In this document: in pieces, positions 1,289 to 42,858 of the stretch
Position numbering within the stretch: position 1 is the first letter of the stretch
How the letters are laid out: each line of letters opens with the position of its first letter
NCBI GenBank assembly: GCA_035289385.1
Contig: DATDXI010000066.1
Span: 1,548-65,547, forward strand
Origin: Candidatus Nanoarchaeia archaeon
Lineage (GTDB): Archaea; Nanobdellota; Nanobdellia; Woesearchaeales; GW2011-AR9
DNA: 64,000 bases
Direction of reading: 5' to 3'
Program-made: the position numbers and the translations under genes
The notes under the pieces: model-generated
Database searches by the model: none
Seen by the model: the letters and a program-made list of their open reading frames with translations, nothing else
Told to the model about the DNA's origin: nothing

Positions 1289-1873
1289 TTAAAGAAGAAA
1301 TTTTATCCTTTCCTGAAATTTCTGTGGATAGCACTCCACGTATTTTTTAAGACGCTGTTGGTCAAGATGTTTCAGCCATCCTTTTACCTCAACCTTATCG
1401 ATATTTTTTCTGAAATATAGTCTATCTAATACCGTCTTTTCCTTGTCAGAATAGGGCAATATCATCTCTCCAATCGTGTGGTATTCAACACCAAAAAACA
1501 GCTCTCGTGGTATCATTCGAAGCAGCACGTTCGTTCCCATCACTTTTCTTAATCCTCTCCGAACATGACGGGTGGTAAAGATGACAGGAATGGTCTCCTG
1601 CTCCCATAAGTTATGTCTGCTGAGGGCATCTTCCCCGCCGAGGTATGCTGGCTGAAAGCAGAAGACTGCCAGTGATGGATCATTGTGTGAAGTATAATAT
1701 CCTTTCATTAATCGATGGATCTTTCCTTTTTTGACAAGATTCCGCAGCACATGGCGGTCGTATTGCTTTACTTTTTTCTTGCTCTTCAAGAGCCTGCTGA
1801 TAGAAGAGGCCTGCACAACAGGGCTTTTGGCAAATAATTGTTCTATCTCTTTAAGGTATTTTGTCTTTCCCAT
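1289..1873 (-). CDS. AbiEi-like (COG5340-type) winged-helix protein, putative partner of the adjacent nucleotidyltransferase
   Basis: The N-terminus (SSISRLLKSKKKVKQYDRHVLRNLVKKGKIHRLMKGYYT) fits the AbiEi N-terminal wHTH pattern (L.RLvk.Gkl.Rv.rGvY). It lies immediately downstream (1-nt gap) of the DUF1814 gene on the same strand. Confidence 0.45.
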   Translation of the reverse strand: MGKTKYLKEIEQLFAKSPVVQASSISRLLKSKKKVKQYDRHVLRNLVKKGKIHRLMKGYYTSHNDPSLAVFCFQPAYLGGEDALSRHNLWEQETIPVIFTTRHVRRGLRKVMGTNVLLRMIPRELFFGVEYHTIGEMILPYSDKEKTVLDRLYFRKNIDKVEVKGWLKHLDQQRLKKYVECYPQKFQERIKFLL

Positions 1874-1874
1874 A

Positions 1875-2525
1875 CTATCCCTCTCGACAATACCTTTCGA
1901 TATACTCTTTCATCTTTTGGACGGAAGGAACAACTCCTTCCAGGATAAGGACTTGAAGCTCTTCTTCATCTGCAGGGGCTGGAAAATCATCCAATAGTCT
2001 TTTAAGAAAAGAAAGCACTCCTTTTCGGTCTTGCACAAATCTCAATAAAAAGAAGATATCATAAAGATCACGGATTTTCTTTCTGTTAAGGTAAGCATTT
2101 ACTTTTTCTTCCACGAATTGCTCTGGGGTCAGCGTAAGGACAGTAAGGTAATTTCCACTGATGGTTTCATATTCTTTTAGGCAGTTGTCTTTCTTCAGGA
2201 AAAGAGCCTCAAAGCGAACTTTCTGCCGCTGCAGCTGCAACGTCGAATAAATACTGTTGGCAGTAACTTTTTTCTTCTCTAGGATAAACCCTCTCTCCTT
2301 CAGCTTTTCCCAATAGCTGGCTATTTTTTGCTCATCTCGGGGCAGATAGACATCCAAGTCTTCAGAGAATCTTCCTCCTCCATAGCACCTCCAGATAGCT
2401 GTTCCTCCATGAAGAATGGCCGTAGGGAAAGTTATGTATAATTCCTCCACCAGAATATCTTGAGCTAAAGCTATCTCTTGATGGATATGCTTCTTCAGCT
2501 TTTGCCCTAACGCTATTTTTACCAT
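1875..2525 (-). CDS. AbiEii / DUF1814-family nucleotidyltransferase (type IV toxin-antitoxin / abortive-infection toxin family)
   Basis: Contains the diagnostic motif ILHGGTAIWRCYGGGRFSEDLDVYL, equivalent to the GGTAL..YG..RFSEDLD nucleotidyltransferase signature of DUF1814/AbiEii. Confidence 0.65.
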   Translation of the reverse strand: MVKIALGQKLKKHIHQEIALAQDILVEELYITFPTAILHGGTAIWRCYGGGRFSEDLDVYLPRDEQKIASYWEKLKERGFILEKKKVTANSIYSTLQLQRQKVRFEALFLKKDNCLKEYETISGNYLTVLTLTPEQFVEEKVNAYLNRKKIRDLYDIFFLLRFVQDRKGVLSFLKRLLDDFPAPADEEELQVLILEGVVPSVQKMKEYIERYCREG

Positions 2526-2593
2526 AATGCTATTTTTACCATTGTTATGCTTATGTATAACATTGGTTATTTAAATGTTTCGCTGGAATTTAA

Positions 2594-2626
2594 GTACGTA
2601 TTTAGTTCGGTTAAAATAGTGGGCAG
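2594..2626. repeat. Solo terminal-inverted-repeat fragment of the MITE-like family (GTACGTATTTAGTTCGGTTAAAATAGTGGGCAG)
   Basis: About 33 nt that are nearly identical to the reverse complement of the right ends of the elements at 33990-34173 and 42393-42559. The body of the element is absent. Confidence 0.5.
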
Positions 2627-2773
2627 TGTTAATATTTGACGATAGAACTATGGTCTTGTCTTAACCAAATAATCTTAAAACAGTGGATAATATGAAAAGC
2701 ATCTCCGTCACTTATACCCACTGCTCAGAGTGTAGTAAAATATTTAATGGTGTTATTGTTTTGGTAATAAAAA

Positions 2774-3091
2774 GTGGCAGAAACAAGAATCATTAAAGAG
2801 GTAAGTTACTTGGAATATAAAGAGCTTATTGACAAATTCAAAGGTAAGATTAAAGTTAATTCCCATACCTGCTTTAGATTAAATGAACAGCAATGAAAAG
2901 TATATAAAGATGAGGCTCTTGTAGAACCATTAACTGGAGAAAAACCAGCATTTATTGGAATTCAGAAAAACCAAAATTATGCAACATTTTTCAGTAATAA
3001 ACAGGGTTATCTTCGGTTAATGTTTAAGGTGACCAACACAAATATTGAAATAGTAACATTTTACCTGATTGACAACATACCAAAAATCTAA
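2774..3091 (+). pseudogene. DUF4258-like (putative toxin-like) gene interrupted by an in-frame TGA at 2894-2896
   Basis: The single frame reads (V)AETRIIKEVSYLEYKELIDKFKGKIKVNSHTCFRLNEQQ*KVYKDEALVEPLTGEKPAFIGIQKNQNYATFFSNKQGYLRLMFKVTNTNIEIVTFYLIDNIPKI. The C-terminal ...IVTFY pattern is typical of DUF4258. It lies directly upstream of a DUF2283 gene, which is the usual partner. Confidence 0.4.
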
Positions 3092-3092
3092 A

Positions 3093-3476
3093 ATGAAAAT
3101 AAGACAGCTTGATGCAAAAGGGAAGGGGGAAATGGATTATGATTATGCAAATGATATTTTATTCTTTAAAGTTAAAGAAAGAGAATATGATCATTCCATT
3201 GAATTAGAAGATGTTATTTTAGATATTGATAAAGAAAGATACATTACAGGAATCCAAATTTTTGGAGCATCAAAGATGTTTAATGTTGAGAAAGACGCTT
3301 TACGGAATGTTAAAAAATGGGAGTTTAAAGTGAGAACAGAAGGTAAGGTTGTCTATGTTCAGTTAATGTTTGAAATGTTACGAAGAAATCAAGTAGTAGA
3401 ACGTGGTCAAAACTTGGTGAGAGAAGCTTCATCTTTATTGACTGATTCTGAAGTTATGTGTGCAGCAACAGCATGA
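3093..3476 (+). CDS. DUF2283-family small protein; the track ORF starts at a TTG at 3069, but ATG 3093 is the probable start
   Basis: MKIRQLDAKGKGEMDYDYANDILFFKV...DIDKERYITGIQIFGAS matches the DUF2283 pattern (YD.e.D.l.i....G.I.GIEI..AS). Confidence 0.5.
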   Translation: MKIRQLDAKGKGEMDYDYANDILFFKVKEREYDHSIELEDVILDIDKERYITGIQIFGASKMFNVEKDALRNVKKWEFKVRTEGKVVYVQLMFEMLRRNQVVERGQNLVREASSLLTDSEVMCAATA

Positions 3477-3552
3477 TTTATTGCCTTCTTGGTCTATACC
3501 CATAGCTTGCTGCGACGGAGAGCTTAATTCCTTTCTGGAAGAAGAGATAAAA

Positions 3553-3921
3553 CTATTTCAAGTGTTGTGTTATATCTCCTACTACTTTATCAGAATCAAA
3601 TTCTCCTTTATCATAGAAACCATTTGCTCCATAACGAAGAGCATTCCTAACAACATCTGAACCTCCCGCGCTTACTAAATAGAATGGAACATTATTTCCT
3701 GATCCTCTAATTTTTTGGAGAGATTTTAATCCTGCACCTTTTTCTTCCATGTCATTATCACTGATAACTAAGGAATAATCCCCCTGTAAAACACGTTCTA
3801 CTAAGTCACTCCCAGTTTCAACTGCATCAACCTGCGCATCTGGAAAAGCATTTTTTACTAAACTAACATATGTTCCTCTCCAACTTGGATAGTCGTCAGC
3901 AACAATAACCTTCTTTACCAT
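3553..3921 (-). CDS. Stand-alone CheY-like response-regulator receiver domain protein
   Basis: Has the acidic pocket (VIVADDYPS ... LVISDNDMEE) plus a conserved downstream Lys/Ser pattern. The 122-aa length is typical of receiver domains. Confidence 0.65.
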   Translation of the reverse strand: MVKKVIVADDYPSWRGTYVSLVKNAFPDAQVDAVETGSDLVERVLQGDYSLVISDNDMEEKGAGLKSLQKIRGSGNNVPFYLVSAGGSDVVRNALRYGANGFYDKGEFDSDKVVGDITQHLK

Positions 3922-4067: not shown

Positions 4068-5513
4068 ATGTCACAGAAGGACAATAAGGGGATAACCGTC
4101 AAGAAAGTGGATGATTTCTCTGAATGGTACACACAAGTTCTGCAGAAAGCAGAGCTGATCGATTATTCTCCTGTTTCTGGATGTTATATCTTAAGGCCTA
4201 GCGCTTACCACATCTGGGAGAATGTGCAGCAATTCTTTGACAAGCTGATCAAGGCTGATGGAGTGAAAAATGCCTATTTCCCGTTATTTATCCCTGAAAA
4301 TCTATTGACAAAAGAAAAACAGCACGTGGAAGGCTTTGCCCCAGAAGTAGCTTGGGTCACTCACGGTGGTAATACAGCATTGCAAGAACGATTAGCTGTC
4401 CGCCCTACCTCTGAAACGATCATGTATGACTCTTATGCCAAATGGATAAGGTCACACAAAGATTTGCCGTTACGCCTAAACCAATGGTGTAATGTGGTGA
4501 GATGGGAATTCAATCATCCCGTTCCTTTTCTGAGAAGCAGAGAATTTCTCTGGCAGGAAGGTCATACTTGTTTTGCCACACCGGAAGAAGCTCATGCTGA
4601 AGCAGAGAAGATATTAGGTTTCTACGAGCAAGTCTTTAGGGAATTGTATGCTATCCCTGTGTTAAAAGGTAAAAAATCCAATCAAGAAAAGTTTGCCGGG
4701 GCAGATTATACTTTGTCGGTAGAAGCATTCCTCCCTAACGGAAAAGCTATTCAAGGAGCAACATCCCATCACCTTGGCCAGAATTTCTCTAAAGCATTCA
4801 ATATCTCGTTTACCGATTCTCAAGGAAAAACAAGTTATGCTTACCAGAACTCTTGGGGTATCTCTACAAGGTCCATAGGAATAATGATTCTGATGCATGG
4901 GGATGATAAGGGTTTAGTGATTCCTCCAAGAATTGCCGAGAAGCAAGTGGTTATTGTTCCAATTTTATTTGATGACTCCAAGAAGAAAGTTCTGTCGGAA
5001 GTTCAAAAGATCAAAGATCATCTAGAAAAGCAAGGTCTTCGAGTTCATGTTGATGACCGCGAAGATTATTCTCCCGGCTGGAAGTTTAATGAGTGGGAAG
5101 TGAAAGGTGTTCCTATTAGAATTGAACTAGGTCCGAAAGATCTGGAGAAGAAGCAGGCTGTTGCTGTCCGAAGAGATACAGGAGAGAAGAAAGCGATTAG
5201 TCTTGCCAAGATCAGCAAGGATGTTCCATCTCTGCTGGATACTATCCAGAATGATCTGTTGCAAAAAGCAGAGAAGTTTTTGAAGAGTTCTATCGTTTCT
5301 GTTTCAACAGGAAAAGAAGCAGAGCTGGCATTCAAGCAGGGGAAACTTGTTTCTGCTTCATGGTGTGGTTCAAAAGAATGTGAAGAGTCGGTGAAGGAAA
5401 AGACTGGGGCAAAATCACTGAACAGCCCGCTGCTCCATGGAAAAGTTTCTGGAAATTGTTTTGCCTGCAAGAAGAAGGCTGTGGCACCGTTTTATCTTGG
5501 GAAGAGTTATTGA
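4068..5513 (+). CDS. proS: Prolyl-tRNA synthetase, archaeal/eukaryotic type
   Basis: Class II aaRS catalytic core (motifs around [60 protein letters not shown]) with the C-terminal zinc-binding domain characteristic of archaeal ProRS. Confidence 0.9.
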   Translation: [481 protein letters not shown]

Positions 5514-5538
5514 TTGTGGTCGGTGTTTATTCTTCTAC

Positions 5539-6513
5539 CTATTCTAATTCCCATTCTATGGCATTGGGCCAATACATCACTCCTTGAGCTCCCCACTCTG
5601 AATGATATGGATCTGCACCAAAAGCAAGATCACGAACAGTTTGCTGGCCATTGGCAATACTATCCTGGATATTGTCCTCAAGGGCAGTGATATTAAAATT
5701 AGCGGTTTCATAAGGTCCTCCCACACTTTCTGTACTTAAAATGCCGTGTACACTGACCAACTTTGTTTCTCCTTCTTCATCTAAGAGATGATTTGCATTG
5801 ACCTGAATTTCAGTTCCTTGCTCAGGGTTTCGCCAATAGGCGGCATGTCTCGCATAGCGGATCGCGCCTGCGGACATTTCCCGCCAGTCGTCGAAGTTAC
5901 AAGATAGGTGTTCAAGCGGAAAATTGGAAAAATAGATAGCATTTCCTGAAAAATCTCTCACATCAGATAAATTTCCCTCTTCCAGATATCTTTGTACCTG
6001 CTCTAGGTGATTGCCAGGGACGACTAAAAGGTCAGCATGATAACTTGGGCCTTCAGCGATCACTTCGTTCTGTTCTCCAAGTAACACATTGTTTTGTTGT
6101 CTATAATGTGCCAAAGCAGTTGCTTCCAGACTTCCACCGCCATTCAGGATATCAATTAAAGATACTTCACTTTGCAGACGTTCTGCCAATTGGGTTCCCA
6201 ATGTTTCGGCAGCGGTCACGAAATTACTGTAGCTTTCAGGACATTCCCCTGTGGAACGATCTTCTGGACAGAGGGCACGCAGCCGCTCAGCGGACTTCCC
6301 AAAAAATCCTAAACAGTCTTTAAGGGTGGAATTGACGCTCATCTGGGGATGGTTTAAGGGAGTGGGCGTGGAGATTTGGCGGTCGGAAGGTTGAGGGGCC
6401 GGGGCACTTGTCTCGGGCAAAGGAGGCGCATCATAACGATATAATTTGTCGTCACCACAGACGGCCAGGGCTAGGCCGATGAGTCCGACGTATATTTTGG
6501 TTCGAAGAGTCAT
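5539..6513 (-). CDS. Secreted or membrane-anchored hypothetical protein
   Basis: N-terminal hydrophobic segment (IYVGLIGLALAVCG) followed by a proline-rich linker. No catalytic motif recognised. Confidence 0.45.
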   Translation of the reverse strand: MTLRTKIYVGLIGLALAVCGDDKLYRYDAPPLPETSAPAPQPSDRQISTPTPLNHPQMSVNSTLKDCLGFFGKSAERLRALCPEDRSTGECPESYSNFVTAAETLGTQLAERLQSEVSLIDILNGGGSLEATALAHYRQQNNVLLGEQNEVIAEGPSYHADLLVVPGNHLEQVQRYLEEGNLSDVRDFSGNAIYFSNFPLEHLSCNFDDWREMSAGAIRYARHAAYWRNPEQGTEIQVNANHLLDEEGETKLVSVHGILSTESVGGPYETANFNITALEDNIQDSIANGQQTVRDLAFGADPYHSEWGAQGVMYWPNAIEWELE

Positions 6514-6652
6514 TGTTACTACTAATAGGTGGTTTATTTATAAATGTTTTGCTGCTTTTCAAGGAAAATGTTGCTTTTGATTGTTCGTATCGAGGGTTTA
6601 TCTCATTTGTCTAAAAGCAAATCTTATATAGCAGATTTTCTTCTGGGTAGGT

Positions 6653-7792
6653 ATGGTTGATAAAGAAATCATCGTCATCGGGGATATTGAGATAGGGGCA
6701 GGCAACCTTACGGATGATTTCATCAGTGACCAGGCCTTCTCTGATTTTATTCATACATTGACAAAGAGGGATCATCCTGTGGATGTTATTTTGAACGGGG
6801 ATACTTTTGATTTTCTGAAATGCCCTTATAAGGCTGGTGATTCGTATATCTATCCTCGCCATATCACTGTAGATATCTCGTTAAATAAACTAGGATTGAT
6901 GCATCATGCTCATAAAAAGTTCTTTGAGTCCTTAAAAAAATTTGTCAGAAAGCGGAATAATAATCTCTACTTTACCCTTGGTAATCATGATCAAGACTTA
7001 TTGTTTCATGAAGTTCGAGAAGATATCCGAAAACTGCTTGGCGGATCGAAACGGATCCATTTTCCTGGATTAAAATATCAGCAGCATGGGGTCTATGTGG
7101 AGCATGGGCATCAATATGATTTTCTGAGCAAGATCAATTTTCAGAAGCTTTTCTTGAATTATAAAGGGAAACCTATCTTGAATTTTCCCTGGACGGCATT
7201 TAGCTTAGTCAGCACGTTCATGGACATCAAAGAACAACATCCATTCATGGAGCGTATCACGCCCAGGCCGTTGCTGTTATCATTTAACAGCATGGTCTTA
7301 CGCAAGATCAGTTTTCGCTCTCTAGGCTATTTTTTAAAGACGGTCTTGTATTATCCGTTCCGCTATTATTCTGATCCTACCTACAACTTGCCGACAAAAC
7401 TGTTTGGCTTCTTTTATTATCGCGTGAAAAACAGACAATGGGATGAAGATGATATCATCAATGTCTTTAGGAGGAAGAAAAAAAAAGTGAAGCATCAAGT
7501 CTATGTTCTGGGCCATGTGCATAAGGTGCAGATGCTGGAGCAGAGGAAGAGAGTGATCATCCATCCAGGATCTTGGAGAGACGAATATGAATTGAATGCG
7601 GAGACGAGGATGCTCATGCCAAAAGATAAGTTTTATGTTCAAGTGTTGATTCATGATGATAGTCATTTAGAGTATAATCTCAACAGCTGGCCGATCAAGA
7701 GGAGCATCTTTTTGTTTGATGATGTTCGAAAGCATGAATTAGCGTATATCTATCTGGCTGCTCAGGAAGAAAAGTATGAGCCTCAATGGTGA
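6653..7792 (+). CDS. Calcineurin-like metallophosphoesterase
   Basis: Ordered metallophosphatase motifs GDIEIG...GDTFD...GNHD...GH.H...GH.H. Confidence 0.6.
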   Translation: MVDKEIIVIGDIEIGAGNLTDDFISDQAFSDFIHTLTKRDHPVDVILNGDTFDFLKCPYKAGDSYIYPRHITVDISLNKLGLMHHAHKKFFESLKKFVRKRNNNLYFTLGNHDQDLLFHEVREDIRKLLGGSKRIHFPGLKYQQHGVYVEHGHQYDFLSKINFQKLFLNYKGKPILNFPWTAFSLVSTFMDIKEQHPFMERITPRPLLLSFNSMVLRKISFRSLGYFLKTVLYYPFRYYSDPTYNLPTKLFGFFYYRVKNRQWDEDDIINVFRRKKKKVKHQVYVLGHVHKVQMLEQRKRVIIHPGSWRDEYELNAETRMLMPKDKFYVQVLIHDDSHLEYNLNSWPIKRSIFLFDDVRKHELAYIYLAAQEEKYEPQW

Positions 7793-7886: not shown

Positions 7887-8594
7887 GTGTTATCTATTTT
7901 AAAAAAAGCCATGAAGAGGAAAGAGGAATCAGCGAAGACTACTTTTAAAGATACTCTTCTTCAAGACACTCCTCTTAAAAATACTTCTCTTCAAAATGTA
8001 ACTCCAGATGATCATTCCGGCATCGCCCTTGCCATCGCTGCCGTGCGGGAAAGTGATAGGAACAATCTAGAGCAACGAATTCATCTCTTTACGCTAGTGA
8101 AGGATAGTGTCCAAAAACCATCGGAACAGAAAGCTGATACTTCTCTTCCTAAACTCCCTAAACTAGCTGATGTTCTTGATGATGCAGATGATGCAGACTC
8201 TCTTCAAGATGATACCGATGATACTTTGGTGAATGTCCGCTATTCTTTCCATGATGAAGAATTGGCAAAGAATTTCTATAAGTCTGCTTCCATCGATTAT
8301 CTGAAGCTGTTTTACGGTGATACCGGAAAAGTTCCTCCACAATTTGCCCAGGACAATGACTATTTTACGGAATCGGTAGCAAGAGATACTGATTCAGAGA
8401 CGATCCAGACGCATGAGGCGGAGAAATCATTTATGTCCGTGCAATATGCCACGATGCTTGGCGCTCATACCGCTGTTCATTTTAAAGACAGGAATAAATT
8501 AGACATGTGGATCAAATTCAATAAGGACCTTTTTGGCATGTTTGAACATAGTGTTGCTTTAACAAGAGAAATTGATTATGCCAGGAGGGGTTGA
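7887..8594 (+). CDS. Hypothetical acidic protein
   Basis: ORF of 235 aa with a low-complexity D/T-rich middle. No family recognised. Confidence 0.35.
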   Translation: MLSILKKAMKRKEESAKTTFKDTLLQDTPLKNTSLQNVTPDDHSGIALAIAAVRESDRNNLEQRIHLFTLVKDSVQKPSEQKADTSLPKLPKLADVLDDADDADSLQDDTDDTLVNVRYSFHDEELAKNFYKSASIDYLKLFYGDTGKVPPQFAQDNDYFTESVARDTDSETIQTHEAEKSFMSVQYATMLGAHTAVHFKDRNKLDMWIKFNKDLFGMFEHSVALTREIDYARRG

Positions 8595-8677: not shown

Positions 8678-11089
8678 ATGAAAAAAGAGGCTTTAATTCT
8701 AGCATCATCATTACTCCTCTTATCTCTTGCTGGCTGCTCCTTTCCACCATTTCAAGATAATAATGAAGGTGCTGGCTCTTCAGATCCATCTGTAGTAACT
8801 ATTGGCTATATCGGCTGTTCTAACACGAGAGAGACAGTAGAAGGCTATGCTCATCTTGGCGGCAAAAAGATGTGGGATTCTCAGCGAAGATATGGTTCCG
8901 GAACGATTTTAGATTGGTCGCAGAACGTAGAGGAAGGAAGCAAATATTGGGATGTTTTTGATGAGCTTTTAGAGAAATATCCTAACACCAATACTATCTG
9001 GTTTGAGCTTTGCATCATGGATGAAGATCGGGCAACAAGTTATGAGCACGCTGCTTTAATCCTTAGTGAAATTAGGAAACGGATTCCAGCAGTTACTATT
9101 TATGTCTCTCCATTAGCAGACTATACTGAGGGCATATGTGAAATAACGGGGACGTTTGGTTTAGAAAAAGGAAAAGAATTGGCTAAAGAGCTGGATGAAA
9201 AGAATGAAGATGTTCTTCCCGGACCAGTTTTAGGACCGATGACACCTAAAGATACGGCAAAAGATGGCTGTCATCTGAGCAGCCCTGATGGAAAAAGAAA
9301 ACTGGGAAATCAGATGCGGCTGTTCTTTGATGCAGAAGAATATTCTGCCGATGAAGCATCTATAGGCTATATCGGCTGTTCCAATACGATGCAGACTATT
9401 GCCGCTTACTGGTCGGGTGATTATGGAGGAAAAGGCGCTAATTCTGGTGATGATCTTCTGTGGACATTTTATGAGGATGAGATTCACGAATATGATAGTG
9501 GTGCCGTCGTGGATTGGTCAAGAGGAGCAGAAAATGGAAATACGTTTTGGGAAACATTTGATCGATATTTAGAAAATAACCCTAATACTAAAGCGATTTT
9601 CTGGCAGTTATGCGTTCGTAAAGAGGAACCAACACCTTATGAAGAAGCTCTTCCTGTCCTGGAAGCAATCCGGGAGAGGATACCGGGAGCTGTCATTTAT
9701 GTTTCTCCCTTGCCGCCGTATACGGATGGAGTATGTGAAATTACGGGTACGTTAGGCATTGAAAGGGCAGGCGCATTGGCAGAAGAGCTTATCGAGAGGA
9801 ATGAAGATGTTCTTCCTGGGCCAATGTTGGGGCCGATGACTCCTGAAGATACTGATGAAGATGGCTGTCATTTAAGTGAAGCGGGCATGCAAACCATCGG
9901 GAAGCAGATGCGAGATTTTTTTGGTGGACTGGAGAATAAGGCAATTAGTGACATAGAGAATGAAGTAGCAATTATAGTCGAAGAAGGCAGTGATGAGCAA
10001 AGCGATGAAGCTGTTCTTGAAGAACTGTCCCCTGAAGAGCAACTATGGAGTGATCGTATTGAAAAAGCCATGGCTGCTACCTCTTGTCCTGACGCGGCTC
10101 AACCAACATTTCCAGATTCTTATTATCTAGGTCCTTTAGTAGACACTCATCTCCATATCCCTTCGATTCCTGACTGGTCAGCCGAAGAGGATGTAGAAAT
10201 GCAAGGTCGAGTTCCGGAAGGCCGTTTTGGTGGTCCGCAAGCTCTTTTAGGATGGAACGTCAGGATGAGCGACATTGCCTGTACCTTAACATCTGAAGGA
10301 ACTCGCAACAATTTTGCCTTCTTTCCTGCCTATGAAGGAAAAATATTTCCTTATCAGCTAGAAATGTGGAACAGAACGATGGCGCAATATCCAGAGTTAT
10401 TCACACCATTCATCATGTCTTCCGGGGATGACAGCAATCCTCAGGGCTTTCCTACCGTTGATGCAGCAACATTGAGGGAAATGCTCTCTCTTTATCCAGG
10501 CTTATTTGAAGGGTATGGTGAGATAGGTCTTTATGCGCGAGAAAATGGCGGATCTCCAGAACTTCCTCCGGATTCTCTTATGCTGCAAGAGATCTATCCT
10601 CTCGTTCGGGAGAACAATCTTGTGGTCTATTTTCATCTAGGAGATGGGCATAAGGATACCTTTGAAAAAGTGCTGGAGCAGTATCCAGACATCACGTTTA
10701 TCTGGCATGGCGATCAGCTTTCTGTCGAAGAAGTTAAAGATGTTTTGCGGAAGCATCCTAATGCTAATTATGGAGTTGACGAATTTTTTGGCGGGGAACG
10801 AGAAATTTTTGAGCTGTATGTCGGGAAGAGCAAAGAAGAATATTTAGCATCTGCGAATAAGAATTTTGATAAGATCATCAATCAGGCCATAAATCATTGG
10901 GAATCCCTGATTGAGCAGTATCCTGATCAAGTCACCTGGGGCACGGACCGAGGAGATGCAGTATGGAATTATGATTCAGATGTTGGGCAGATGCAAGTGA
11001 AGATCGCCCGAGCATTCATCGGAAAACTGGATAAGGATGTTCAGGAAAAATTTGCGTATAAAAATGCGGAGCGCCTTGTTTCAGGCTAA
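8678..11089 (+). CDS. Lipoprotein with two tandem copies of an unknown ~190-aa domain fused to a C-terminal amidohydrolase-like (TIM-barrel metal hydrolase) domain
   Basis: Lipobox LSLAGCS. An internal duplication is visible directly: IGYIGCSNT...IYVSPL.DYTEGICEITGTFGLEKG...EDVLPGPVLGPMTPKDTAKDGCHLS is repeated as IGYIGCSNT...IYVSPLPPYTDGVCEITGTLGIERA...EDVLPGPMLGPMTPEDTDEDGCHLS. The C-terminal part has LVDTHLHIPS, GYGEIGLYARE, VVYFHLGDGH and WGTDRGD, reminiscent of amidohydrolase-fold metal ligands. Confidence 0.6.
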   Translation: MKKEALILASSLLLLSLAGCSFPPFQDNNEGAGSSDPSVVTIGYIGCSNTRETVEGYAHLGGKKMWDSQRRYGSGTILDWSQNVEEGSKYWDVFDELLEKYPNTNTIWFELCIMDEDRATSYEHAALILSEIRKRIPAVTIYVSPLADYTEGICEITGTFGLEKGKELAKELDEKNEDVLPGPVLGPMTPKDTAKDGCHLSSPDGKRKLGNQMRLFFDAEEYSADEASIGYIGCSNTMQTIAAYWSGDYGGKGANSGDDLLWTFYEDEIHEYDSGAVVDWSRGAENGNTFWETFDRYLENNPNTKAIFWQLCVRKEEPTPYEEALPVLEAIRERIPGAVIYVSPLPPYTDGVCEITGTLGIERAGALAEELIERNEDVLPGPMLGPMTPEDTDEDGCHLSEAGMQTIGKQMRDFFGGLENKAISDIENEVAIIVEEGSDEQSDEAVLEELSPEEQLWSDRIEKAMAATSCPDAAQPTFPDSYYLGPLVDTHLHIPSIPDWSAEEDVEMQGRVPEGRFGGPQALLGWNVRMSDIACTLTSEGTRNNFAFFPAYEGKIFPYQLEMWNRTMAQYPELFTPFIMSSGDDSNPQGFPTVDAATLREMLSLYPGLFEGYGEIGLYARENGGSPELPPDSLMLQEIYPLVRENNLVVYFHLGDGHKDTFEKVLEQYPDITFIWHGDQLSVEEVKDVLRKHPNANYGVDEFFGGEREIFELYVGKSKEEYLASANKNFDKIINQAINHWESLIEQYPDQVTWGTDRGDAVWNYDSDVGQMQVKIARAFIGKLDKDVQEKFAYKNAERLVSG

Positions 11090-11094
11090 GGTAG

Positions 11095-12099
11095 TTGTTG
11101 AGAATGAAAAATATCACTAAAAAAAAACAAGAACGTCCTCGTGCTTCTATTAAAGATCATCTCCTTCGAAGTGTTCCTATGGTTCAGCAGCAGGCTACGG
11201 TGAAGAGTGTTTTAAGCATGCTGGAGAAATTTGGCAAGAAGCATGACAGCGTTGATTGTATCTATGTTATAGACCCTTCCGGCTCATTCCTTGGTTTTTT
11301 TCATGTCAAAGAGTTGTTTCATCGCCCAAAAGATGCTCTTGTGTCATCATTTCTGACAAAAGGAACAGTTACTGCTCACTTGGAGATGGAGCTGGAGAAA
11401 GCTGCCCATCTGGCACTTCAGCATAACTTGATCCAAGTTCCTGTGGTGAAAGACAAGAAGTTGATAGGAGTTGTTTCTTCGCGGGAGATTTTGTCGACGA
11501 TCAACAGGTCACTTCGAAAAGATATCTTCCATTTTGCCGGTATCCACCATTCCCACCTTGATTTTCAGGACAGCATGGAGATCCCTTTTTTTAAATCAGT
11601 ACGGCATCGCCTGTCCTGGCTGATCGTCGGTTTTATCGGGGCGATGCTCATGGCAGTATACATAGGCTTGTTTGAAGAGACGCTCACTCATTATCTGATC
11701 ATCGCTTCTTTTGTCCCGGCTATCGTTTATATCAGTGATGCCCTGGGCACGCAATTCCAGACGATCTTTGTGAGGGACTTAGCGATTATGGGAAAAGAGC
11801 TGAATGTCCGGCTTTATTTCATTCGACATCTAGGGATAGGTTTGTTCATCGCTATGATCATTGGGCTGATCATGTTTTCTTCCATCTGGCTGATATGGAG
11901 ACAGCCAAGAATCGCATTTATTATCTCCTTAGCTGCTTTTATCACGCTGCTGATTACCAGCTTTACTTCATTGTTCGTTACCTTATTGATCCGGCGCTTC
12001 AAGTTTGATCCTGCTTTAGGCAGCGGTCCTATCGCTACGATCATCTCTGATATGACCTCCGTCATCATTTACTTTGTCATCGTGGTTTTGTTTATTTGA
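11095..12099 (+). CDS. mgtE: Mg2+ transporter MgtE-like (CBS pair plus C-terminal membrane domain)
   Basis: Has a CBS-pair region (IQVPVVKDKKLIGVVSSREIL) followed by five hydrophobic helices and an MgtE-like C-terminal tail. Confidence 0.65.
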   Translation: MLRMKNITKKKQERPRASIKDHLLRSVPMVQQQATVKSVLSMLEKFGKKHDSVDCIYVIDPSGSFLGFFHVKELFHRPKDALVSSFLTKGTVTAHLEMELEKAAHLALQHNLIQVPVVKDKKLIGVVSSREILSTINRSLRKDIFHFAGIHHSHLDFQDSMEIPFFKSVRHRLSWLIVGFIGAMLMAVYIGLFEETLTHYLIIASFVPAIVYISDALGTQFQTIFVRDLAIMGKELNVRLYFIRHLGIGLFIAMIIGLIMFSSIWLIWRQPRIAFIISLAAFITLLITSFTSLFVTLLIRRFKFDPALGSGPIATIISDMTSVIIYFVIVVLFI

Positions 12100-41377: not shown

Positions 41378-41485
41378 GCACCGGTAGTATAGTGGTTAGT
41401 ATGTCGGCCTTCCATATAGGAAGTGTCTTTTGAGGCTCTTCTGCGAAGGGAGCCGATCACCCGGGTTCGAATCCCGGCCGGTGCA
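41378..41485 (+). tRNA. tRNA-Gly (anticodon UCC) with a 36-nt intron after position 37/38
   Basis: Acceptor GCACCGG/CCGGTGC, D arm GTAT-AGTGGTTA-GTAT, anticodon stem TCGGC/GCCGA and loop CT-TCC-A, T arm CCGGG-TTCGAAT-CCCGG, discriminator A, no encoded CCA. The intron is 41415-41450 and contains GGAAG complementary to the anticodon-loop CTTCC (bulge-helix-bulge style). Confidence 0.7.
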
Positions 41486-42571: not shown

Positions 42572-42858
42572 TTAGGGGCATGCCCTCGGTCGAATATACT
42601 TGGCTACTGCAGCTGAACCCTAACGGCTTCTCGGACCTGCGCTCCTCTGAACATGGACAGTACAGGTTATGGCTGCTTTCTTCCGAATCTGACCAGATTC
42701 CCAGCATCGCCATCCCAAAGGACAGATCGTCAGCAAAGACGCCAGGACTGCAATAACCCCGTAAACCCTTCCTCAGGCTTCGGCTCCGTGTAAAGTCCGT
42801 TCACGGTGACAACGCAGGACTAGCGCGCCAGCCTAGCTTACCCTAATCTCTAGCTTGA
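42572..42858 (-). ncRNA. ffs: Signal recognition particle RNA (7S/SRP RNA); boundaries approximate
   Basis: GC-rich (about 55%) 290-bp non-coding stretch in a roughly 40% GC genome. The minus strand reads GGUCAGAUUCGGAAGAAAGCAGCCAUAACCUG. This matches the universally conserved SRP RNA helix-8 (domain IV) motif CAGGUCCGGAAGGAAGCAGCC, including the GGAA tetraloop and the AGCAGCC asymmetric loop. The 3' end has a GGGCAUGCCC hairpin. Confidence 0.65.

Follow-up and report, generated by a model that had tools for sequence, protein, structure and literature searches.

Two well-known enzyme superfamilies contain the closest described relatives of the protein considered here. SGNH/GDSL hydrolases, which include 1zmb-type (SASA-like) enzymes, CE3 acetylesterases, PatB and the C-terminal domain of OatA, share with its two N-terminal repeats a five-stranded parallel-sheet fold (predicted in the repeats), a serine after strand 1 and an Asp-x-x-His motif ahead of the last helix; a conserved loop glycine of the repeats would, by its place in the topology, be a counterpart of theirs. 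LigI-like and cog3618 lactonases and ACMSD-type decarboxylases share with its C-terminal domain a score against Amidohydro_2, a (beta/alpha)8 barrel and HxH, His, His and Asp at strands 1, 5, 6 and 8. Multi-domain secreted carbohydrate esterases offer a third comparison: like the protein described here, they carry several hydrolytic domains per exported chain, joined by flexible linkers and variable in order and number. We know of no characterised enzyme in which an SGNH-like domain is paired with an Amidohydro_2 barrel. Such a protein is encoded in a 64,000-nucleotide stretch of a contig from a Candidatus Nanoarchaeia archaeon (DATDXI010000066.1; the whole stretch is called the window below), and differs from the multi-domain secreted esterases in that it has no carbohydrate-binding module and that its hosts are genome-reduced archaea and bacteria. 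We hold it moderately likely that the gene, which comes from a DPANN archaeon, specifies a hydrolase tethered to the cell surface and built of three domains, two SGNH-type acyl-esterases and a metal barrel.

The gene product of 803 residues is identical to a protein in a public collection (P0001). At its N-terminus (MKKEALILASSLLLLSLAGC) a basic KK n-region leads into a hydrophobic core, which is followed by the lipobox L-A-G-C (LSLAGC, residues 15–20), which has the pattern [LVI][ASTVI][GAS]C at the end of the signal peptide. An earlier note on this DNA, made from the sequence alone, had called the product a large exported lipoprotein, and the reading frame, signal peptide and lipobox bear this out. 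A looser lipobox pattern was used for homologues and was present in about 29 of 45 close ones; several of the others, as read from their N-termini, are anchored instead by an N-terminal transmembrane segment, or have a signal peptide and then a region with SLH matches in Pfam. That the type of anchor is swapped while the catalytic parts stay argues for a cell-surface enzyme.

BLASTP aligned residues 31–225 with residues 226–440 at 98 identities over 198 positions (49%, E 4e-67). All of the identical blocks that the earlier note had quoted for two repeats of ~190 residues were found in both copies (IGYIGCSNT, IYVSPL, CEITGT and NEDVLPGP.LGPMTP.DT..DGCHLS) and, judged from the sequences, the similarity of the repeats is far beyond chance. 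We then modelled residues 226–425 with AlphaFold (AF2), using an alignment of 24 repeat units (A1). The model (mean predicted local distance difference test score, pLDDT, 89; predicted template modelling score, pTM, 0.88) displays a five-stranded parallel sheet with flanking helices, in a flavodoxin-like alpha/beta/alpha arrangement; domain B contains a low-confidence insertion at residues 250–257. When the model was compared with the PDB using Foldseek, 30 of the 31 best matches were SGNH-fold proteins. The best was the putative acetylxylan esterase 1zmb (E 2.2e-4, probability 1.00), and the others included PatB (7trr), the OatA C-terminal domain (6vjp, 6wn9), CE3 acetylesterases (5b5s), platelet-activating factor (PAF) acetylhydrolase, sialate O-acetylesterases and E. 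coli thioesterase I (TesA, 6lfc). Template modelling (TM) scores were ~0.45–0.6, and identity to solved SGNH proteins was 11–16%.

Residue conservation was counted over 211 domains from 192 proteins, with denominators that vary by aligned column. The candidate nucleophile (Ser48 in the first copy and Ser235 in the second, both within IGCSNT) lies at the predicted junction of strand 1 and helix 1, and is serine in 204 of 205 aligned domains. It corresponds to block I of SGNH proteins, with G-C-S in place of G-D-S, the cysteine replacing the aspartate. A glycine in the loop before helix 2 (Gly75 and Gly275; conserved in 196 of 208) takes the place of block II, an equivalence drawn from topology only. 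Block V is represented by D196-G-C-H199 and D395-G-C-H398 just before the last helix, with histidine in 204 and the aspartate three residues upstream of it in 194 of 207 domains. Both copies in the window protein retain the candidate serine, histidine and aspartate and the block II glycine.

The repeat also differs from described SGNH/GDSL proteins in going unrecognised by current domain models. No SGNH/GDSL-type match to the repeats of the window protein was found in Pfam, even at E values up to 10, and NCBIfam recognised neither the repeat nor the whole protein, returning only spurious lipoprotein-signal matches. Sub-threshold matches to Pfam Lipase_GDSL_2 were present in 5 of 68 and in 3 of 35 relatives. 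Since these sequence links to canonical SGNH proteins are weak, membership in the superfamily rests on the predicted fold and the topology of the motifs. On that basis the repeat is, as modelled, a divergent SGNH/GDSL-type hydrolase fold, and constitutes an SGNH-like subfamily for which Pfam and NCBIfam have no model. The earlier note could not place the repeat and had named an SGNH match beforehand as a refuting outcome; a match to SGNH esterases and O-acetyltransferases is what the AlphaFold model gave. Sub-threshold matches to Pfam TPR_6 and TPR_14, which fell on helices in domain A and in the barrel, were set aside as chance.

The C-terminal domain, by comparison, is recognisable by its sequence. 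Amidohydro_2 (PF04909) matched residues 616–800 with 33.9 bits against a gathering threshold of 26.4 (E 3.7e-8), and it was matched by all 35 aligned homologues (best E 2.8e-14). A full-length AF2 model (pLDDT 84.3, pTM 0.50) predicted a (beta/alpha)8 barrel. In Foldseek the barrel matched best to LigI-like 4i6k (E 1.1e-5, TM-score on the target 0.66), with further matches to the cog3618 amidohydrolases 4dlf and 4do7, 4mup, 6uvz, dihydroxybenzoate decarboxylases and dihydroorotase 3pnu, and weaker ones to TatD (1zzm, E 2.8e-3) and the dinuclear oxygenases AibH and TruffO. Six candidate ligands are invariant among the 35 homologues: the HxH of DTHLH (H491 and H493) on strand 1, E615 on strand 4, H653 on strand 5, H677 on strand 6 and D757 after strand 8, all as placed by the predicted structure. 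In the amidohydrolase superfamily, an HxH/Glu/His/His/Asp set is that of binuclear metal centres in which a carboxylate bridges the two metals. The complete ligand set at strand ends and the Amidohydro_2 matches support the assignment as an amidohydrolase, and the metal-ligand motifs seen in the earlier note are thus upheld. In contrast to LigI, cog3618 and ACMSD proteins, the window barrel has an additional invariant glutamate on strand 4 (a residue typical of binuclear members such as TatD, and not of LigI or ACMSD), is predicted to be exported and lipid-anchored, and carries an N-terminal extension with a conserved cysteine pair; no solved structure was detectable from its sequence. Cys470 and Cys535 of the barrel are conserved. 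As a stand-alone protein the barrel forms a family of 491 clusters, mainly restricted to genomes of DPANN archaea and of the bacterial Candidate Phyla Radiation (CPR), whose top members have ~420 residues and up to 81% identity to the window barrel. The N-termini of the closest of these, when read, start with a lipobox and then a Glu-rich stretch.

At the DNA level a single stretch of 45 nucleotides, with 80% identity and a spacing of 561 nucleotides, is all that is left of the similarity between the two repeats, which indicates that the duplication is old. When the domains of the window and of 28 related loci were placed in a neighbour-joining tree, the first repeat (clade A) separated from the second (clade B). 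A recent internal duplication was rejected, given that DNA identity is nearly gone and that the copies fall into separate clades that also occur as separate genes. The internal tandem duplication described in the earlier note is therefore real as a tandem repeat, and by the tree and the separate genes of relatives it goes back to the fusion of A and B, a pair of old paralogues.

Both domain types are present in every one of the 45 close homologues, and in six the order is reversed. Split or adjacent arrangements were found at eight related loci (L001, L008, L015, L016, L019, L021, L023 and L024), and others are fused as in the window or with the barrel first (Table 1). Fusions in either order and adjacency of the separate genes are classical evidence that A, B and the barrel work together. 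Two further observations concern the same loci. In L035, two tandem amidohydrolase paralogues of the barrel family (4773–7266) follow a major facilitator superfamily (MFS) transporter gene and occupy the site held in the syntenic L001 by the A gene and the B-barrel fusion. A conserved lipoprotein of ~440–480 residues, which may be a further partner, lies beside or near the module genes in seven related loci (L001 7870–9315, L005 6716–8152, L014 2262–3665, L015 2385–3713, L020 2368–3738 and L007 9499–10539 among them); this neighbour of ~480 residues is not present in the 64-kb window, and its copy in L001 had no Pfam match.

The repeat also has a wide existence of its own. A profile search of 1.84 billion cluster representatives (threshold E <= 0.001), which follows up the suggestion to look for homologues of the repeat alone, returned 562 representatives, 117 of them at E <= 1e-30, and mostly small secreted proteins. 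Most have 200–260 residues, many have a signal peptide or lipobox, and the repeat is usually the only domain; some are fused to the extracellular modules fn3, Big_7, PKD or CWB2 and, in one relative, to a pectin acetylesterase. Among archaea, the named homologues belong to Woesearchaeota, Nanoarchaeota, Aenigmatarchaeota and Micrarchaeota, and others belong to Peregrinibacteria, Kaiserbacteria, Colwellbacteria and Saccharibacteria among bacteria. The protein family is common to DPANN archaea and CPR bacteria. Several gene neighbours relate to carbohydrates. At one Vicinamibacterales locus, three esterase genes (COesterase, PF00756 and canonical Lipase_GDSL_2) precede a member that stands alone; in Colwellbacteria a domain-barrel pair is followed by an alpha-amylase gene; a GH113 gene adjoins the module in Aenigmatarchaeota; and a YdjC deacetylase-family gene follows it in Peregrinibacteria. 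The repeat family resembles SGNH/GDSL carbohydrate esterases in being extracellular and in having other carbohydrate esterases among its fusions and gene neighbours. These neighbours and the pectin acetylesterase fusion weakly favour acylated glycans as substrates.

From these features we propose that the protein would be exported through the Sec pathway and lipid-modified at Cys20, and would then be suspended by its short tether on the external side of the membrane. Domains A and B could each act as a Ser-His-Asp acyl-esterase, in which an acyl group is passed to the serine and released by water. The barrel may hold a binuclear metal centre that activates water for cleavage of an amide, ester or lactone bond. 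Because the three parts are fused in either order or are adjacent in relatives, they may act successively, in steps, on one extracellular acylated substrate. That substrate might be a glycan outside the cell or a polymer of the cell envelope, bearing acyl (probably acetyl) groups; it could be stripped first of O-acyl groups and then of N-acyl or lactone groups. Deacylation of extracellular glycans is the probable activity of the protein.

Several observations weigh against this proposal. The oxyanion-hole asparagine of the block III motif GxND is absent from the repeat; in its place after strand 3 stands a near-invariant cysteine (WWQLC, 205 of 208), with Gln or Glu two residues upstream of it. 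The PDB was searched by sequence with the entire protein and with the repeat, broad-family and full-length profiles, which gave only chance matches to HAT/TPR-like helical repeats. Alignment of the family profile by hhalign with E. coli TesA (sequence checked against 1ivn) was not significant, the DGCH motif being aligned with DGIH of TesA at only 5% probability, and neither was that with the canonical GDSL protein of locus L030; the mapping of residues in blocks I–III is for this reason drawn from predicted topology only. On the side of the barrel, the nearest solved structures are lactonases and decarboxylases, not deacetylases. The barrel stands alone far more often than it is fused (the 491 clusters noted above), and three loci with a stand-alone barrel had no SGNH-like gene within 6 kb, which together suggest that the coupling is recurrent and not obligatory. 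Finally, the neighbours of the gene in the window give no carbohydrate hint.

The fold comparison is also compatible with transfer of acyl groups in place of their removal, in which the SGNH-like domains would be PatB/OatA-type acyl-transferases that add acyl groups to the S-layer or surface glycans of the cell itself. PatB and the OatA C-terminal domain are in the top four Foldseek matches, the protein is predicted to be tethered to the surface of the cell that makes it, and the Peregrinibacteria forms have SLH domains. Esterases, however, score equally well in the fold search; no MBOAT or AT3 acyl-donor partner was present among the Pfam-assigned neighbours in the window, L001, L002 and other loci (some neighbours were scanned); and hydrolysis accounts better for the fusions, both that with a hydrolytic metal barrel and that with a pectin acetylesterase. 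We regard transfer as unlikely.

A second alternative takes up the suggestion of the earlier note that the repeats are duplicated binding modules, which would present a polymer to the amidohydrolase domain and have no catalytic role of their own. Tandem copies are typical of binding modules, and neither the missing block III asparagine nor the lack of a match to any Pfam or NCBIfam catalytic family speaks for an enzyme. Yet the serine, histidine and aspartate of the SGNH triad are kept in ~95% of the 211 domains, including both copies in the window; the domain occurs alone in hundreds of clusters, usually as the sole domain of a small secreted protein, and in one case within a cluster of esterase genes; and all of its structural neighbours are enzymes. 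The suggestion of binding modules thus does not stand against an SGNH enzyme fold with retained active-site residues, and a purely non-catalytic role seems quite improbable.

The strand 4 glutamate of the barrel raises a different question, namely whether this domain is a TatD-type phosphoesterase or nuclease that scavenges nucleic acids at the cell surface. It stands in GYGEIGLY, which we take to resemble the TatD motif GEIGLD and the binuclear subtype of the superfamily. Besides the Foldseek match to the TatD homologue 1zzm, one of the 35 homologues weakly matches Pfam TatD_DNase (E 0.043), and DPANN and CPR organisms depend on scavenged nucleotides. Set against this, every one of the 35 homologues matches Amidohydro_2, LigI-like and cog3618 structures rank well above TatD in the fold search, and a fused domain of serine-esterase type has no obvious role in the breakdown of nucleic acids. 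A nuclease is in our judgement a rather remote reading, and we retain the proposal that the barrel would cleave amide, ester or lactone bonds.

The cysteines of the protein deserve separate consideration. The window protein has exactly 11, comprising the lipobox cysteine and four, four and two in the three domains, and all are conserved; an even number in each exported domain fits disulfide-bonded exported domains. The repeat family as a whole is marked by the signature GCS[N]T...C...C...DGCH with four near-invariant cysteines, a point of difference from described SGNH/GDSL proteins; the motifs GCS[NMIV][TS] and D-G-C-H and the two further cysteines are retained throughout. Using domain numbering, disulfides Cys9–Cys87 and Cys128–Cys172 may brace the active site. 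A metal or iron-sulfur site made of the four cysteines and the adjoining histidine, in a metal-dependent or redox enzyme or sensor that is no serine hydrolase, is very unlikely: the C...C...C...CH pattern occurs in 181 of the 211 domains, Cys172 (next to the histidine) is replaced in none of 207 aligned domains even where its presumed partner Cys128 is, all four cysteines follow strands on the predicted active-site face, and the hosts of the family are mostly from anoxic groundwater by their record titles, but conservation of the serine equals that of the cysteines, two sequences lack both Cys9 and Cys87, as a disulfide pair would predict, the even counts extend to the barrel, and the repeat matched no solved metal-binding fold.

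What is known here is that both parts come from well-known superfamilies; the result is a useful correction of annotation that does not contradict current understanding. What is new is a divergent, Cys-rich and unannotated SGNH-like family joined to an Amidohydro_2 barrel, the two forming a module characteristic of DPANN and CPR organisms. It defines an SGNH-like family of hundreds of members that current domain databases miss, and a recurrent, variously fused three-part hydrolase module common to archaea and bacteria. Searches of the literature on the repeat motifs, and on SGNH or amidohydrolase proteins in DPANN or CPR, brought up nothing relevant. The genomes of DPANN archaea and CPR bacteria are reduced, and both groups are believed to live at the expense of other cells, a lifestyle for which surface enzymes are likely tools; the idea of an episymbiotic role, raised in the earlier note, fits the taxa that carry the family. 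If the substrate were identified, it would help to show what these organisms obtain from a host or from their environment, and would add a cysteine-rich branch to the SGNH enzymes. A bolder version, which we think improbable, is that GCS...DGCH marks a distinct SGNH-derived catalytic class, in which four cysteines, as a metal or redox site or as two strained disulfides, would take over from the canonical Asp/Asn network, and that A, B and the amidohydrolase would form a dedicated surface machine, exchanged between DPANN and CPR, with which these episymbionts would strip and harvest host envelope components.

Table 1. Features of the studied gene (window positions; aa, amino acid residues) and arrangements of domain types A, B and barrel in the window and related loci
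Feature	Position or locus	Strand	Basis
Studied gene	8678-11089	+	803-aa open reading frame, ATG start
Signal peptide with lipobox, aa 1-20, MKKEALILASSLLLLSLAGC	8678..8737	+	sequence reading; lipid attachment predicted at Cys20
Short flexible tether, aa 21-38	8738..8791	+	pLDDT <50 over aa 22-34 in full-length model
SGNH-fold domain (predicted), paralogue type A, aa 39-222	8792..9343	+	49% identity to domain B; A clade; secondary structure like B
Domain A candidate triad and cysteines	Ser48 (8819-8821), Asp196, His199 (9272-9274); cysteines 47, 112, 154, 198	+	
SGNH-fold domain (predicted), paralogue type B, aa 227-418	9356..9931	+	AF2 model, Foldseek, invariant residues, B clade
Domain B candidate triad and cysteines	Ser235 (9380-9382), Asp395, His398 (9869-9871); cysteines 234, 312, 353, 397	+	
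Acidic, partly disordered linker, Glu/Asp-rich, aa 419-451	9932..10030	+	pLDDT <50 over aa 426-449; composition
Amidohydrolase-superfamily (beta/alpha)8 barrel, Amidohydro_2, aa 452-803	10031..11086	+	Pfam, Foldseek, invariant ligands
Barrel ligand positions	H491/H493 (10148-10156), E615 (10520-10522), H653 (10634-10636), H677 (10706-10708), D757 (10946-10948)	+	
All three parts fused, A-B-barrel	window, L005-L007		
A gene followed by B-barrel fusion	L001		
B-barrel fusion followed by A gene	L015		
B gene followed by A-barrel fusion	L016, L023, L024		
Barrel gene followed by A and by another copy that falls outside clade B	L008 (Aenigmatarchaeota)		
Single domain and barrel encoded by separate genes, adjacent or close by	L021, L019		
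Barrel ahead of the domain	L002, L018; P0033-P0036		SLH (PF00395) matches in P0033-P0036

The neighbours of the gene in the window encode a metallophosphoesterase, an unknown protein, an MgtE/CBS transporter, a GNAT protein and an H+-PPase, with no similarity to the neighbours in L001. The gene for the transporter (CBS and MgtE-type, for divalent cations; 11095–12099, + strand) starts 5 nucleotides past the stop of the studied gene, and the two may be co-transcribed; the position of a cation transporter beside a metal-dependent surface enzyme could be coincidence. Scans for promoters and terminators stayed at background level, the consensus used being bacterial and uninformative for an archaeal host. 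Two further reading frames upstream, at 5539–6513 (- strand, 324 residues) and 7887–8594 (+ strand, 235 residues), had no Pfam match; the first has a signal-like hydrophobic N-terminus that ends in LALAVC, and its product may be exported or lipid-anchored.

Elsewhere in the window, Rfam identified a tRNA of 108 nucleotides at 41378–41485 (+ strand, 56.7 bits) that was missed by ARAGORN and may be an intron-containing archaeal tRNA, and an archaeal signal recognition particle (SRP) RNA was found at 42575–42843 (- strand, 117 bits). This RNA shows the window to be archaeal and, with the taxa of the named homologues, places it in a DPANN archaeon. Among the related loci, the contigs of L001 and L035 are syntenic (TruD, rhodanese, DUF1761 and methyltransferase genes) and are labelled archaeal, and each has a gene with Pfam Sigma70_r2/r4 matches (10534–11067 in L001, 9581–10189 in L035); these are either mislabelled bacterial bins or archaea with sigma-like genes. 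In L022, from an Aenigmatarchaeota metagenome-assembled genome, a Rad51/RadA gene (1403–3574, - strand) is split by an intein with a LAGLIDADG endonuclease domain.

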